Shown: positions 28,692 through 33,115 of the stretch, piece by piece
How positions within the stretch are numbered: position 1 is the first letter of the stretch
How the letters are laid out: each line of letters starts with the position of its first letter
Assembly (NCBI GenBank): GCA_963667465.2
Contig: CAXXDN010000001.1
Location: 192,001-256,000 of the forward strand
Reading direction: 5' to 3'
Length of the DNA stretch: 64,000 nt
From: Dehalococcoidia bacterium
Lineage (GTDB): Bacteria; Chloroflexota; Dehalococcoidia; UBA2979
Notes under the pieces: generated by a model
Seen by the model: the letters and a program-made list of their open reading frames with translations, nothing else
The model's database searches: none
Told to the model about the DNA's origin: nothing
Translations under genes and position numbers: made by a program

Positions 28692-30500
28692 CTACCGCGC
28701 TGCCTCCACCTCCACCGTGACGACGTCGATCTCGTGGTACTTGCGGTGCTGCACGGATGAGGCGTAGTGGCGTAGCAGGCGGAACGTGAGCTCGTTGTCG
28801 TCCTGGCTCTGCGGCGTGTCGCCGAGGTAGGCCAACCGGTCCTCGAGGTTCTCGTCCCGCTCCTCGGAGGTCGCGACGAACTCCAGCTCGATCGTTCCAG
28901 AGCCGCTCCGCGTGCTGATGATCAGGTTCCGATCGCCGCGGGTGAGCTGGTCGGGTTCGAGGCTCAGCAGGCTCGCCAGCGTCTCCTCGCCCGCCGAACG
29001 CAGCCGATCGGTCGAGGGCTCGTCCCAGCCTGCCTTCCCGGCGATCTCACGGAGATACTCATCGACCTTCGGCAGGGAGAGGATGTCCAGATTCACGCTC
29101 AAACTGCGGGCTCGTGGTTGGGTCAGGTTGATCAGCACGGTGAAGAAGATCATGGCGACGCAGCCGGTGGTCAGGCCGTTGCTGAACAGGATCTCCCACG
29201 GCCCGGTGATCAGATTCGGGAAGATTAGATCGTTCTGGAACCCCACCCCCAGCCAGAACGAGACGCCCACCACTGTGGACGTGCGCGGGTCCAGCCCTCC
29301 CTGGATCACCAGTCGCATGCCCTGCACGAACAACAGGGCCAGCCTCACGATCACGTAGGCCGCGAACAACGGAGTCGGGATCGCCGTCAGGACCGCGATC
29401 GCCTTCGGCAGAACCGCCACCGCCAGCAGGATGCATCCGGCGTAAATTCCGACGCGGCGCGCCGCCACGCCGGTGAGGAGCACGTGCGCGGAGTTTGCGG
29501 TCGGCACCGTGTTCGGCAACCCGGACGCGACCGCCGCGAGCAGGTTGGTCACCGCCATGACGTTGAACGCGCCCTGGACCACGCGGAAGTCCGTCGCCCG
29601 GGGGTTGCGCCACGACACCTGCTGGATGGAGATCGTGTCGCTGATGCCGTAGATCGCCGCTGCCAGGTAGACGATCGCGAACCCCGGCAACAGCGTCCAG
29701 AACTCGACCCCGAAGTTGAAGCCGAAGCCCGGCCAGCCCTCGAGCGGAACGCCGATCCAGGCCGCATCGCCGACGCTCGCGGTGTCGTACAGACCCACCG
29801 GCACCGCCACCACGCAACCCGCGAGGATCCCGATGAACGGCGTCCACTGCTGCACGACCGGTGGCGCGAACAGCCGCAGACCCATCATCACGCCCAGCGT
29901 CGTCCCGGCCACGGCAAGCGCCGCGGTATCGGAGCCACCACCGGCTGTGTCCGACATCCTGTTGAGCAGAACCGACATGACCGTGGCCGCGAGCAGCATC
30001 AACACCGTGCCCGTGACCGTCGGCGTGATGATCCTCCGCAGCAGCGAGAGCCGCTGGATGAAGAGGAACAGCAGGATGGACGAGACCACCATGGTGCTGG
30101 CCAGCAGCGCCGGCCCGCCCTCCGTCAGCGCGGCGATGACCACGGCGATGAACGCCGAGGTGCTGACCACCCCGATCGCGTAGCCCGCGCCGAATCGCCC
30201 GAACTGGAAGACCTGCGCAATGGTGCCGAGCCCGCAGACCACCGCCGAGACCGAGAACAGCCACGGGGTGTATTCGCTCGGCTGACCACTCGCCTCAACG
30301 ACGATCGCCGCTATTGCTGCCAGCGTGATGAGGCGGCCGGCAATCGAGAGCAGGCCGTGGCCAAGCGCCGCCAGCGGAGGGATCGGCTCGTCCGGCTCGT
30401 AGAGGATGTAGTCGTTAGTCTGCGCTGCCGCCAAGCTGGCTTCCGATCGTGAGTCTCGGCCCGGCTCGCGGCTCGCACGAGCGGGCCTCGCGCCAGCCAA
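28692..30500 (-). CDS. NCS2 (xanthine/uracil) permease with C-terminal HATPase/RsbW-like extension
   Basis: YEPDE, ITPTVTGTVLML, TGVAARR, many TM helices, about 140 aa soluble tail; start may be TTG at 30434. Confidence 0.8.
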   Translation of the reverse strand: MAGARPARASREPGRDSRSEASLAAAQTNDYILYEPDEPIPPLAALGHGLLSIAGRLITLAAIAAIVVEASGQPSEYTPWLFSVSAVVCGLGTIAQVFQFGRFGAGYAIGVVSTSAFIAVVIAALTEGGPALLASTMVVSSILLFLFIQRLSLLRRIITPTVTGTVLMLLAATVMSVLLNRMSDTAGGGSDTAALAVAGTTLGVMMGLRLFAPPVVQQWTPFIGILAGCVVAVPVGLYDTASVGDAAWIGVPLEGWPGFGFNFGVEFWTLLPGFAIVYLAAAIYGISDTISIQQVSWRNPRATDFRVVQGAFNVMAVTNLLAAVASGLPNTVPTANSAHVLLTGVAARRVGIYAGCILLAVAVLPKAIAVLTAIPTPLFAAYVIVRLALLFVQGMRLVIQGGLDPRTSTVVGVSFWLGVGFQNDLIFPNLITGPWEILFSNGLTTGCVAMIFFTVLINLTQPRARSLSVNLDILSLPKVDEYLREIAGKAGWDEPSTDRLRSAGEETLASLLSLEPDQLTRGDRNLIISTRSGSGTIELEFVATSEERDENLEDRLAYLGDTPQSQDDNELTFRLLRHYASSVQHRKYHEIDVVTVEVEAAR

Positions 30501-30554
30501 TCATACCGACGAACTCCCGACAGGCCGCTACACAAACGGCGTATCATCCCGGCC

Positions 30555-30854
30555 ATGCCCGGCACGCTTGGCGCCAACTACTGCCCCGAGGGCTGCTACT
30601 GGCCCTGCGAGCACCGCGCGCCCGGAGCCTCCGGCAGCAGCACGGGCGGTTGGACCCTGGGCCCAAACCCCGGCGACGACCCCGAGGAGCTGGCTCTCGA
30701 GGAGTGGCAACTCCACTCGATCGCCGGGATCCCTCACTCCCGGTCGATCCCGACGCTCAAGTTCTGCTCCGAGTGCGGCGAGTCCTTCGCCGACTCGGCA
30801 GAGCATTCCCGCGAGCACGAGCGCCTGCGCCAGCTCCGCGACGACCGCCGCTAG
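30555..30854 (+). CDS. small Cys/His-rich protein, probable zinc binding
   Basis: CPEGCYWPCEH and CSECGESFADSAEHSREH; TATCAT -10-like box just upstream. Confidence 0.6.
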   Translation: MPGTLGANYCPEGCYWPCEHRAPGASGSSTGGWTLGPNPGDDPEELALEEWQLHSIAGIPHSRSIPTLKFCSECGESFADSAEHSREHERLRQLRDDRR

Positions 30855-30958
30855 CCTCTCGCCGCCCTCGAGGGCGATCGCGCGCATCCCTGCGGGGGGG
30901 TGTCCCCATCTTCTTCGTCAAGGGTCGCGGGCCGGTGACGGTGGGCAAGGGGAGGCCA

Positions 30959-32173
30959 TCAGGCGGCCACGGGCTCGTGTTGCGGGCCCGCGGCCTGGTA
31001 CGCACGGCGCGAGCGAAGCATGGCGAGGATCACGTCGCAGCGCCGGCGCGCGAGGCAGATGACGGCCGCGTTGTGCGCCTTCCCCTCGGCCCGCTTGCGG
31101 TCGTAGAACGCCCTCGAGGCAGGGTCGCGCAGCGAGGCGAAGGCAGCGAGGAACATCGCGTTCTTGAGCCGGTGGTTGCCACGCCGGCTGCGGCCCTCGC
31201 CGCGGAGGCTGGAGCCGGACTGACGGGTCACGGGCGCGAGTCCGGCGTAGCTGGCGAGTCTCGATCCGTTTGCAAAGCGGGACCCGTCGCCGATCTCAGC
31301 GAGGATCCTCGACCCGGTCCGCGGACCGATGCCCGGAAGCGTGCCGAGGATGCGCCCGAACGGGTGCGCGTTGAAGAGCTCCGCGATCTCGGTCTCGAGC
31401 CGCTCGCGGCGCTCAAACATGCGGTCGAGTTCGACGACTACCTCGGCGATCACGCGCCCCATCACGGTCTCGACGGGCACGACGACGGTCTGCGCGTCGA
31501 GCGCTTCGGCTACAGCTGCGGCAAGGGCCCTGGCGAGGCGCGGGGAGCGCTTCCGGATGATGCGGGCGCTGCGGCCGCGGCCGGCCTGGGCCAGCGCTTC
31601 GGGCACGGGGTGGCGGGCGAGAAGGTCGCGGACACCCGGATGGTGCAGCCTGGGGCCGAGAACGCGCTCCAGGGCCGGGGAAACACCCGTCAGTGCGTCA
31701 CGAAGCCGGTTCGAGAGCCGTGTGGCGTCGGCCGCAAGGTCGGCGTCGTAGCCGTTGAGGACGCGCAACTGCGCGAGCAGCTCGTCGTCGCGGGCGTCGA
31801 GCCAGTGCACCTGGTGGCGCCGGGTGCGGCCGGTGTCGGCGAGCACGAAGGCGTCGCGGCGGTCGGTCTTGGCCTCGCCCGGGTAGAGGTCGGCGGCGCG
31901 GCGCATCACCAGTCCGGGCACGTAGGCAACGGGAACGCCCCGGCGAGCGGCGACCGCGAGCACGAGGCTCGCGAGCGAGCCGGGCTGATCCACGACCAGT
32001 GCCGGGCTGCCGGTCGACGTCGCGCGGTCGAGCAGGGCCTCGATCTCCGCCTCGTCGTTGGCGACGGCTCTGGAGAAGAGCGGCGAGCCCGCGGCGTCGA
32101 GCACGTCGGCAAAGTGCTCCGCCTTCCCGATGTCGAGGCCGATCCACACGTCGATGTCGTCGGGCGTACCCAC
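30959..32173 (-). CDS. IS110-family recombinase/transposase
   Basis: RuvC-like acidic residues in GLDIGK, VVDQPG and KTDRRDA; LPGIG; SYAGLAPVTRQSG with the conserved Ser; GNHRLK; GTG at 32173 after AAGGGAG. Confidence 0.95.
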   Translation of the reverse strand: MGTPDDIDVWIGLDIGKAEHFADVLDAAGSPLFSRAVANDEAEIEALLDRATSTGSPALVVDQPGSLASLVLAVAARRGVPVAYVPGLVMRRAADLYPGEAKTDRRDAFVLADTGRTRRHQVHWLDARDDELLAQLRVLNGYDADLAADATRLSNRLRDALTGVSPALERVLGPRLHHPGVRDLLARHPVPEALAQAGRGRSARIIRKRSPRLARALAAAVAEALDAQTVVVPVETVMGRVIAEVVVELDRMFERRERLETEIAELFNAHPFGRILGTLPGIGPRTGSRILAEIGDGSRFANGSRLASYAGLAPVTRQSGSSLRGEGRSRRGNHRLKNAMFLAAFASLRDPASRAFYDRKRAEGKAHNAAVICLARRRCDVILAMLRSRRAYQAAGPQHEPVAA

Positions 32174-32194
32174 TGTGGCTCCCTTCGGTTGCTC

Positions 32195-32390
32195 GCCCAC
32201 TCGTCCGGAAGGCCGCAGGTACGCTCGCCGTCATCCACCTTACGAATCAGCGATCCGCCGCATGTCCCCATCAGAGGTTCACGCACCGAACAGCGCCGGT
32301 GGCAACACCCCCCAGGCCGTCGAGCGACAGGGGGCACTGAGCCATGCCGACGCTGCCGGACTTCCCGGTCTCAGACGCTACTGAGGCCGT
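32195..32390 (-). ncRNA. putative IS110 bridge RNA
   Basis: Two stem/internal-loop domains; loop sequences match the element right end (10/10 nt), the left end (6-8 nt) and the C-rich target. RNA ends are approximate. Confidence 0.75.
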
Positions 32391-32403
32391 ACGGAGAAAG
32401 TAA

Positions 32404-32428
32404 GGGGGCTGCGCCCCCCACAGCCCCC
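32404..32428. repeat. hairpin at the IS110 insertion site
   Basis: GGGGGCTG-N9-CAGCCCCC perfect 8 bp inverted repeat abutting the IS left end. Confidence 0.65.
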
Positions 32429-32484
32429 ACCTGGAGGTTCTGGAGGTCGCACGCGGCTTCCGCTGATAGACACGGTCCGGCGAG

Positions 32485-32730
32485 CCCCCTCACCCCAACC
32501 CTCTCCCCCAGGAGAGGGGGTCGGATCGAGGGCACACCCAACCCTCGAGGGCAGATCCGGCCCCCTCGCCCCCCGAGGGAGCGGGCGGGGGTGAGGGGGT
32601 CCGACGCCCAGGGGACGACAACCCTCGAGGGCAGACCCGGCCCCTTCGCCCCCCGAGGGAGCGGGCGGGGGTGAGGGGGTCCGACGCCCAGGGGACGACA
32701 ACCCTCGAGGGCGCACCCGCCCCCTCGCCC
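32485..32730. repeat. REP-like cluster with an 80 bp tandem duplication
   Basis: CCCCTCACCCCAACCCTCTCCCCCAGGAGAGGGG followed by inverted copies; ACCCTCGAGG at 32541, 32621 and 32701 (exact 80 bp period). Confidence 0.9.
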
Positions 32731-32818
32731 GGACACGGAGAGACATTGACAAACCTCGAAGCCCACGCGAGAGCGCGGTGCGGGCTACGATGCCGGCAGG
32801 CACGGAACGGAGGCAGCG

Positions 32819-33115
32819 ATGCCGAGACCACAGAAGCTGAGTGACGCCGAGATCGAGGAGCAGCTCGCCGGCCTCGCTGGCTGGAGCCGCGAGGGCGATG
32901 AGATCGTGACCGAGTTCCAGCTGGACGACTTCGTCGCGGCAGTCGGGCTGATCGCGCAGATCGGCGTGCTCGCCGAGCGGATGAACCACCACCCGACGCT
33001 GACCAATACCTACAACCGCGTCGGCGTGGCCCTCAACACGCACGACGCGGGCGGCATCACCGAGTACGACTTCTCGCTCGCCACGGAGATCAACCAGCGT
33101 GCGGGCAGGGGATAG
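32819..33115 (+). CDS. pterin-4a-carbinolamine dehydratase
   Basis: AERMNHHP, THDAGGITEYD. Confidence 0.92.
   Translation: MPRPQKLSDAEIEEQLAGLAGWSREGDEIVTEFQLDDFVAAVGLIAQIGVLAERMNHHPTLTNTYNRVGVALNTHDAGGITEYDFSLATEINQRAGRG

Follow-up and report, generated by a model that had tools for sequence, protein, structure and literature searches.

The left end of a C-run-targeting IS110 element from a Dehalococcoidia bacterium very probably encodes an IS621-type bridge RNA

In IS621 of Escherichia coli, one of the nearest described systems, the left end of the element encodes a bridge RNA with two internal loops, target loop first and donor loop second. In each loop, the 5' strand reads in the same direction as the left half-site and the 3' strand complements the core and the right half-site. 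A 2-nt core is common to donor and target, the promoter is split between the element's ends, and the recombinase combines a RuvC-like domain with a Tnp domain carrying a Ser-Gly motif (available text of PMC11208160 and PMC11208158). The two bases 3' of the core guide in the right target guide (RTG) complement the donor left of the core and form the handshake guide, donor positions 6-7 (PMC11208158, available text). Bridge RNAs have been predicted in 85.7% of the IS110-group elements of ISfinder, and the promoter is described as reconstituted across the core in the circular form of IS110 elements (PMC11208160, in the portion available). Here we analyze an IS110-family element in a stretch of 64,000 nucleotides from a Dehalococcoidia bacterium (assembly GCA_963667465.2, contig CAXXDN010000001.1, positions 192,001 to 256,000; hereafter the window), which resembles IS621 in each of these respects. 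We propose that its non-coding left end very probably encodes a bridge RNA of the IS621 kind, a reading of the sequence that draws on domain content, conserved structure, covariation of guides with DNA, promoter geometry and a CC overlap seen in two relatives.

The element measures 1503 bp without the shared CC and lies on the minus strand at 30901-32403, from a left end TTAC... (opening letters from 32403, TTACTTTC) to a right end ...GATGGGGACA, whose final letters are at 30901. The genome holds three copies that are 99-100% identical and have exactly the same limits, their common part being these ends plus flanking C, in different surroundings. The window copy has the flanks GCAGCCCCC/TTAC on the left and GACA/CCCCCCCGCAGG on the right, that is, GCGCAG-C5/IS/C7-GCAGGG; copy B sits in GGATTG-C5/IS/C6-GACGTC and copy C in CGCCA-C7/IS/C6-GCTTCT, so that C runs flank all three. 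With a left end of 231 nt, a right end of 58 nt and termini, TTAC.. and ..GACA, that are not inverted repeats, the element has the long-left, short-right layout of the IS110 group, of which it is an intact, active-looking insertion sequence. No match to the whole element was found in complete Escherichia coli genomes (blastn). The features on which the argument draws are the following.

30901-32403, minus strand: IS110 element, limits common to the three own copies, with the same ends in homologues.
32404-32408, minus strand: left flanking run of 5 C; the CC beside TTAC (32405-32404) is the left core copy.
30894-30900, minus strand: right flanking run of 7 C; the CC beside GACA (30900-30899) is the right core copy.
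32174-32403, minus strand: non-coding left end, predicted to code for the bridge RNA, from an alignment of 64 distinct homologous ends.
32329-32340, minus strand: 5' strand of the target loop, UCAGUGCCCCCU, with the predicted left target guide (LTG) GUGCCCCC at 32337-32330, which reads in the direction of the left flank ..G-CCCCC.
32304-32315, minus strand: 3' strand of the target loop, CUGGGGGGUGUU, with the predicted RTG GGGGGG at 32313-32308 and then UG at 32307-32306.
32262-32275, minus strand: 5' strand of the donor loop, with the predicted left donor guide (LDG) GAUGGGGACA at 32272-32263, equal to the last 10 nt of the element.
32230-32249, minus strand: 3' strand of the donor loop, with the predicted right donor guide (RDG) GUAAGGUG at 32243-32236, complement of CA-CC-TTAC.
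32397-32402, minus strand: -10-like hexamer TACTTT, inside the left end.
30916-30921, minus strand: -35-like hexamer TTGACG, in the right end; a promoter would form only across joined ends.
30959-32173, minus strand: recombinase gene, 404 aa, start GTG at 32173, with PF01548 and PF02371 (RuvC-like DEDD-type and Tnp domains).

For comparison, one genome per species was scanned, which gave 180 recombinase relatives, and the best 80 of these 180 were used; with the three own copies, 83 sequences were examined. Among the best 80, the relatives in Dehalococcoidia genomes show 81-96% amino acid identity and those in Acidimicrobiia and other Actinomycetota 54-72%. Three loci had no RDG or donor-loop anchor (L062, L081, L091) and six had an unrecognizable start of the left end (L024, L025, L028, L055, L068, L095); these were left out, giving 74 left ends, 64 of them distinct. 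Twelve loci had no right end in the DNA examined and the right end of L039 was dropped, which leaves 61 insertions with a right end. We note that L024, L025, L068 and L095, which come from two genomes, have one common unrelated sequence (..GGCCTTGCAGAAACACCGTCCCTCATAGAAG..) in place of the opening ~45 nt of the left end, and that these look like copies of a left end that was itself truncated.

The donor loop can be read against the element's own ends. The 10 letters GATGGGGACA occur at 32272-32263, within the 5' strand of the loop, and at 30910-30901, the right terminus; these are the only two matches in the window, where 0.08 are expected, and none of 100 shuffles gave two or more. The two sites also change together among homologues: identity of LDG and right end averages 9.06 of 10 positions, compared with 7.77 for shuffled pairings, a value reached in 0 of 10000 (18 distinct combinations, 61 insertions). 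Concordant changes are found at position -8 (T/T 12, C/C 6, no discordant combination), -7 (G/G 5, A/A 11, 2 discordant), -5 (G/G 17, A/A 1, none discordant) and -4 (G/G 14, A/A 4, none discordant); position -10 does not covary, and the LDG therefore spans 9 nt. On the 3' strand, GTAAGGTG at 32243-32236 is the complement of a sequence, CACCTTAC, that arises when the two ends are joined across CC. That complement is found once in the window with 0.20 expected, and 18 of 100 shuffles gave at least one, so the 8-nt match of the RDG is weak on its own. The RDG is invariant in the 64 ends except for C216U (L019, L020, L026, L027, L065) and one base in L071, and since the start of the left end is nearly invariant as well, the two are concordant without carrying covariation information.

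The target loop, in turn, reads against host DNA. Its 5' strand carries CAGTGCCCCC at 32339-32330, and its 3' strand is the reverse complement of CA-CC-CCCC, where UG complements the CA of the donor GACA. Among the 70 insertions with a left flank, the number of C in the LTG predicts the terminal C run of that flank, five C going with five in 34 of 44 and four with four in 11 of 15. Opposite an RTG of GGGGGG, the right run has 6 C in 19 and 7 C in 19 of 44 insertions. The strongest evidence for the target loop is natural retargeting, of which there are three independent cases. In a subgroup of ten (L019, L020-L023, L026, L027, L065, L069, L096), the LTG is CA(UUU/ACU/AGU/AAU)GGCCCU; the left flank is GA(matching triplet)GGCCCC in six of the ten insertions and one or two bases off in the other four, and the RTG CGGGUGG stands opposite CC-ACCC in six of eight. 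The three C of this LTG go with four C in the flank in 10 of 10, so the guide is one C short of its site and the last core position would be a U-G wobble. In L019, the RTG has become CAAGUGG opposite CC-ACTTG, and in L078 GAAAGGG opposite CC-CTTTC. As a separate observation, L056, L075 and L070 have only CC at the left, after ..ACA or ..CA (e.g. GCTAACACC/TTACC), with a normal right run of C6; this left flank mismatches the LTG, whereas it is similar to GACA-CC of the donor itself and could form pairs with the UG that adjoins the RDG. These look like the 'half-match' insertions of bioRxiv 10.64898/2026.08.31.748434, as far as its available text describes them.

The position of the core follows from two pairs of unoccupied and occupied sites. 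The flank of L019 carries an unoccupied paralogue ..CTGGCCCCACCCCC.., the occupied counterpart in L020 being ..CTGGCCCC/IS/CCACCCCC.., and the flank of L078 carries an unoccupied ..GTCCCCCTTTC.. beside the occupied ..GTCCCC/IS/CCCTTTC... In both, insertion adds the element plus exactly CC, and no other dinucleotide fits the two pairs. With this 2-nt junction, the TTGAC motif of the right end is separated from TAnnnT of the left end by 17 nt in 39 loci and by 18 nt in the other 22 of all 61 loci, by consensus match only. A donor core of CA (left end CCTTAC), which gives the same products and a core in both LDG and RDG, was ranked below CC; the cores of donor and target would have to differ, and LTG and RTG of three subtypes put the crossover at CC.

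Around these loops, the stems are conserved as RNA. RNAalifold recovered the basal stems and also paired the guide strands with each other (CCC/GGG, LDG/RDG), for which reason the clear helices were set by hand, with the four loop strands left unpaired; the 5' hairpin was excluded from the pair count because MAFFT columns there are not comparable. The resulting 25 base pairs fall in six helices, which make up the basal and apical stems of the two domains; standard pairs fill 97.2% of their cells, compared with 90.4% in column shuffles, and changes on both sides occur in 12 of 25 pairs, as against 5.9 in shuffles, none of 500 of which reached 12. Sliding the 3' partners by 1-3 columns as a control lowers pairing to 32-57%. 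Compensatory changes lie mostly in the two basal stems, as at columns 96/158 (UA 28, UG 17, GC 11, CG 8) and 169/240 (UA 38, CG 16, UG 9).

These comparisons bear on an earlier note, made from the letters of this stretch, which had read the left end as an RNA with two internal loops, the second repeating the far end and complementing the joined ends, the first matching the flanks, with a CC core and a GACA-CC-TTAC circle junction. Every string and coordinate that it quoted is found on the minus strand. Its two-loop fold is backed by the compensatory changes across the 64 distinct ends and its donor loop by covariation with the right end; its target loop covaries with host flanks through all three retargetings, and the 10-nt identity is exact and clearly non-random. 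The complement of the joined ends is present, and the proposed core and junction agree with the two unoccupied paralogous sites, the 8-nt RDG complement and the promoter spacing. The stems CAGCG../..CGCTG and TGGC/GCCA are present. The CGGCG/CGCTG hairpin exists as well, its conserved part being only GCG/CGC, and the statement that all four segments are followed by TG mixes two things: on the 3' strands, UG takes the place of the IS621 handshake guide and complements the CA of GACA, and on the 5' strands, U belongs to the spacer before the apical stem.

We propose that the element moves as follows. It would excise as a circle in which the ends join as ...GGGGACA-CC-TTAC..., setting TTGACG (-35, right end) 17-18 nt from TACTTT (-10, left end), and the promoter thus reconstituted may drive an RNA of ~200 nt together with the recombinase gene. 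The donor loop's GAUGGGGACA has the sense of the right end and so would pair with the bottom strand; once strands have been exchanged, the trailing UG could base-pair with the donor's CA. The exchange itself, at the CC common to both partners, would be carried out by a tetramer of the DDDD/Ser recombinase and would place the element within a C run, for which the guides predict an ideal target of G-C9-R. For transcription, binding of the RNA, the chemistry and the succession of steps, this scheme is inferred from IS621. A single contig from an RNA library (X20, 152 nt) extends over 32123-32270 at 95-99% likeness and is silent on starts, ends and strand; it may be DNA carry-over or derive from a relative, and is not evidence for or against transcription.

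Alternatively, the matches may act as DNA, i.e. as sub-terminal repeats bound by a protein, with the folded leader serving only as a 5' untranslated region that controls translation of the recombinase. Covariation of LDG and right end is also expected of a repeated protein-binding site, and the fold of the single sequence is unexceptional. The stems flanking the loops, however, keep pairing through the changes on both sides described above, which a DNA binding site does not need, and loop 1 covaries with host flanks that lie outside the element. Furthermore, experiments on IS621 established just this strand arrangement, in which the 5' strand reads in the direction of the left half-site and the 3' strand complements the right one (PMC11208160, available text). 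We therefore regard a purely DNA-level role as very improbable.

Several observations nonetheless weigh against the bridge-RNA reading. The minimum-free-energy fold of the single sequence is no better than shuffles (z = -1.1) and zips the C run onto the G run; fold energy is thus uninformative and the structure rests on comparative evidence. This zipping arises because a homopolymer target, itself a difference from IS621, makes LTG and RTG mutually complementary over 5-6 nt. A scan of 30500-32900 with Rfam 15 (E <= 10) returned nothing on the left end and only chance microRNA-like matches in repeats resembling repetitive extragenic palindromes (REP-like), and the circle junction was not seen in contigs from four public runs. 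For the poly-C type, LTG and flank agree only modestly once the C run is set aside, at 5.80 of 9 compared with 5.35 in shuffles, with 0 of 5000 reaching it. The core itself is CC here and CT in IS621, where it is paired in all four guides according to the available text; here, LTG (CC), RTG (GG) and RDG (GG) cover the core and the LDG does not. In the window, the LDG stops at the A before the core, with UG facing the place of CC, as the earlier note had correctly stated, and the trait is conserved across the family, U standing at the first core-facing position in 61 of 64 aligned ends; core pairing by all four guides is thus not found. Finally, the UG after the core guide of the RDG complements the element's own donor CA left of the core and, of the two bases (CC) in the target, pairs with just one, whereas in IS621 cognate donor pairing beside the RDG is described as trapping the complex before strand exchange (PMC11208158, available text).

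A further point against this reading concerns the length of the C runs. A 2-nt core predicts that an empty site holds n_L + n_R - 2 C, and for the poly-C subtype the sites are shorter in five of five comparisons, by 1-5 C. For the window copy (5 + 7, predicted 10), the orthologue in G001 has 6, a contig of a related strain (X8) has 6 on evidence of its 24-nt side only, and a loose end in X2 fits 5. For copy B (5 + 6, predicted 9), two neighboring tandem units have 6. For copy C (7 + 6, predicted 11), G010 has 6 and G009 has CTCCCC. L071 (5 + CCTCCCC, predicted 10) compares with 7 in G009, 7 in G010 and 9 in G025, with flanks 98-99% identical, and L017 (predicted 11) with 8 in G012. A 5-nt junction would predict 6, 7, 8, 7 and 8 for the window copy, B, C, L071 and L017, which is much closer. 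Contigs from runs X1 and X2 show the same 5 and 7 C as the window copy, with no gaps in the alignment. When the flanks of 16 relatives' insertions were compared with the window's genome by BLAST, no alignment reached a junction, and a paralogue of the L017 flank in G011 diverges before the junction. In its C/G runs, the genome has 553 of 6 nt, 65 of 7 nt, 5 of 8 nt and 7 of 9-15 nt; the longest class exceeds what the decay suggests, for which slippage or footprints of the element could account, and two of the seven runs of at least 9 C adjoin or lie inside REP-like or insertion-sequence contexts.

This raises the possibility that the general mechanism holds and that the clade departs from IS621 geometry on homopolymer targets, a reading that we consider unlikely. 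In version (a), LTG (G+C5) and RTG (G6) would read one short run of ~6-8 C from opposite strands, with apparent duplication or expansion; in version (b), the mobile unit would carry about three more bases (CCN) right of GACA, so that joined ends hold ~5 nt. The short empty runs and the better fit of a 5-nt junction speak for such a departure, as do the LDG that does not reach the core and the run counts of the window's genome, with 7 runs of at least 9 C and 553, 65 and 5 of 6, 7 and 8 C. Support also comes from the sequence ..ATAGGGACA/CCT.. (CCT-CCCC), which three elements of two clades (L071 and L028 of the window's clade, L017 of another) have at three different sites, and which suggests that the T at +3 beside ATAGGGACA/CC has travelled with the element. 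The LDG of these three is GAUGGGGA(C/U)A, mismatched at -7, and A(-7) and T(+3) co-occur. Against it, the two non-homopolymer subtypes, which have the same donor ends, follow the 2-nt rule exactly, a 2-nt junction is required for the RDG to complement CA-CC-TTAC along an unbroken stretch of 8 nt, and a 5-nt junction would lengthen the promoter spacer to 20-21 nt. Because strand exchange conserves nucleotides, version (a) would need extra synthesis or loop repair at both junctions. Right runs of 6-7 C agree with an RTG of six G, in keeping with the canonical register. The element may also enter unstable runs only where a rare long allele is present, one site having 7, 7 and 9 C in near-identical relatives, and the relatives are metagenome-assembled genomes, in which homopolymer lengths are possibly miscalled. 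The canonical model of a 2-nt CC core is thus favored by the spacing of the promoter, by the RDG complement of 8 nt and by the two cases that fit exactly. Slightly less probable still, in our estimation, is the full form of the departure, in which the poly-C clade lacks the 2-nt bookkeeping of IS621 and each insertion is flanked left and right by a C run of almost full length, canonical excision then leaving an expanded run. If true, the element would lengthen or create hypermutable homopolymer tracts and thereby make its own future targets, and the absent core pairing of the LDG and the cognate 'handshake' bases would be part of an altered geometry.

The recombinase belongs to the IS110 family by its domains. 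Its most likely start is the GTG at 32173 behind a GGGAG Shine-Dalgarno sequence, with the stop codon ending at 30959. PF01548 (DEDD_Tnp_IS110; E = 5.9e-41, 140.3 bits, cut-off 29) and PF02371 (Transposase_20; E = 1.1e-23, 83.8 bits, cut-off 21.3) are both present, in line with the assignment in the earlier note. The C-terminal domain matches the IS621 and ISCro4 structures (E = 3.9e-17; 9.2e-23 with a profile), and in a profile alignment of the Tnp domain to 8wt6, S319 (QSG) aligns with the ESG that holds S241 of IS621. The N-terminal domain is too diverged from IS621 for a pairwise sequence match, the protein having 404 aa compared with 326 aa there, and the RuvC-like domain gives a weak profile match of 10.3 bits, which aligns GlDvgk with GIDTAK, viDqpg with cIEATG (E60) and ktDrrDa with KTDTVDA. 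In 31 of 31 aligned homologues (L072, with an in-frame stop, was excluded), D14, D62, D104 and D107 are invariant and Q63, P64 and G65 vary. The claim that Asp replaces the second acidic residue, a Glu, is thus supported by conservation and by this low-scoring alignment, and Asp62 likely stands in place of IS621 Glu60; a pairwise BLASTP alignment to the genome's other IS110 protein, which puts that protein's Glu two residues further on, is a caveat to equating D62 with E60. Presumably, actinobacterial proteins of the IS110/IS900 type likewise have Asp at this position.

The closest named proteins, encoded on Arthrobacter plasmids (NC_008537.1, AP014720.1) and annotated in these records as 'IS110-like element ISArsp5 family transposase' and 'insertion element IS110 43.6 kDa protein', are 51-52% identical over 97-99% of the length. 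The ISArsp5 element, at 51% amino acid identity, is alike in that it sits between C runs, has left-end loops GCCGCCCCC (GCCCCC) and GGGGGGUGUUG, holds a copy of its own right end (AUAGAGGC) in the left end and has TTGAC in the right end. It differs in its donor ends, ..ATAGAGGC and GTTACC.. compared with ..GGGGACA and TTAC.. here, and in its RDG, GUAACGUGG compared with GUAAGGUGG. The hosts differ as well, ISArsp5-like elements being found in Actinomycetota and the closest relatives of the window element, among the best 80 of 180, in Chloroflexota (Dehalococcoidia).

A second IS110 family in the same genome, with 10 copies of 1489 bp (e.g. G000:C1:749551-750021, L101), encodes a 407-aa recombinase that is 30% identical. 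Its left end also has two loops, which match the ends of that element and its target, a REP-like repeat entered as ..CACCCCCGCC-CT/TAATGGGG...GGGGTGT/CT-CTCCCC..AGGAGAGGGGGCCGGA: the RTG and two further bases complement GT-CT-CTCCC, and a copy of the right end (CCUGGGGUGU) is accompanied by the complement of CT-AATGG. In contrast to the window element, this family has a CT core, a REP-like hairpin repeat as target, Glu (GIETD) in the recombinase and an LDG that includes the first core base. Directly upstream of the window element, at 32480-32700 on both strands, lie G+C-rich hairpin repeats (CCCCTCACCCC...GGGGTGAGGGGG) in tandem units of ~60 nt, which belong to the repeat family targeted by this second family; contig depth in the public runs is highest at this cluster. 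Elsewhere, L033 and L034, contigs of different assemblies, have an identical left flank and element and different right flanks, which could reflect either copies that recombined with each other or a join made at the repeat during assembly.

In conclusion, the element is a well-supported and ordinary example of the mechanism described in 2024. Given the bridge RNAs predicted family-wide and the existence of poly-C-targeting relatives, it joins a known kind; a literature search for IS110 elements or bridge RNAs with homopolymer or poly-C targets returned nothing relevant among the matches listed. If the anomaly of the C runs is true, an RNA-guided transposon would be linked to the creation of hypermutable homopolymer tracts, and if it reflects unstable run lengths or assembly error, the element is simply ordinary. 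The clade also provides a natural retargeting series, in which one conserved donor loop and recombinase clade go with at least four target loops (poly-C with 5 or 4 C, GGCCCC-ACCC, its ACTTG variant and CCCC-CTTTC), each matched by insertion sites. Such a series offers comparative evidence that the system is programmable and supplies high-GC orthologues with a CC core, and the three departures from IS621, namely an LDG without core, cognate pairing adjacent to the RDG and the likely Asp for Glu60, bear on the generality of the rules derived from IS621.

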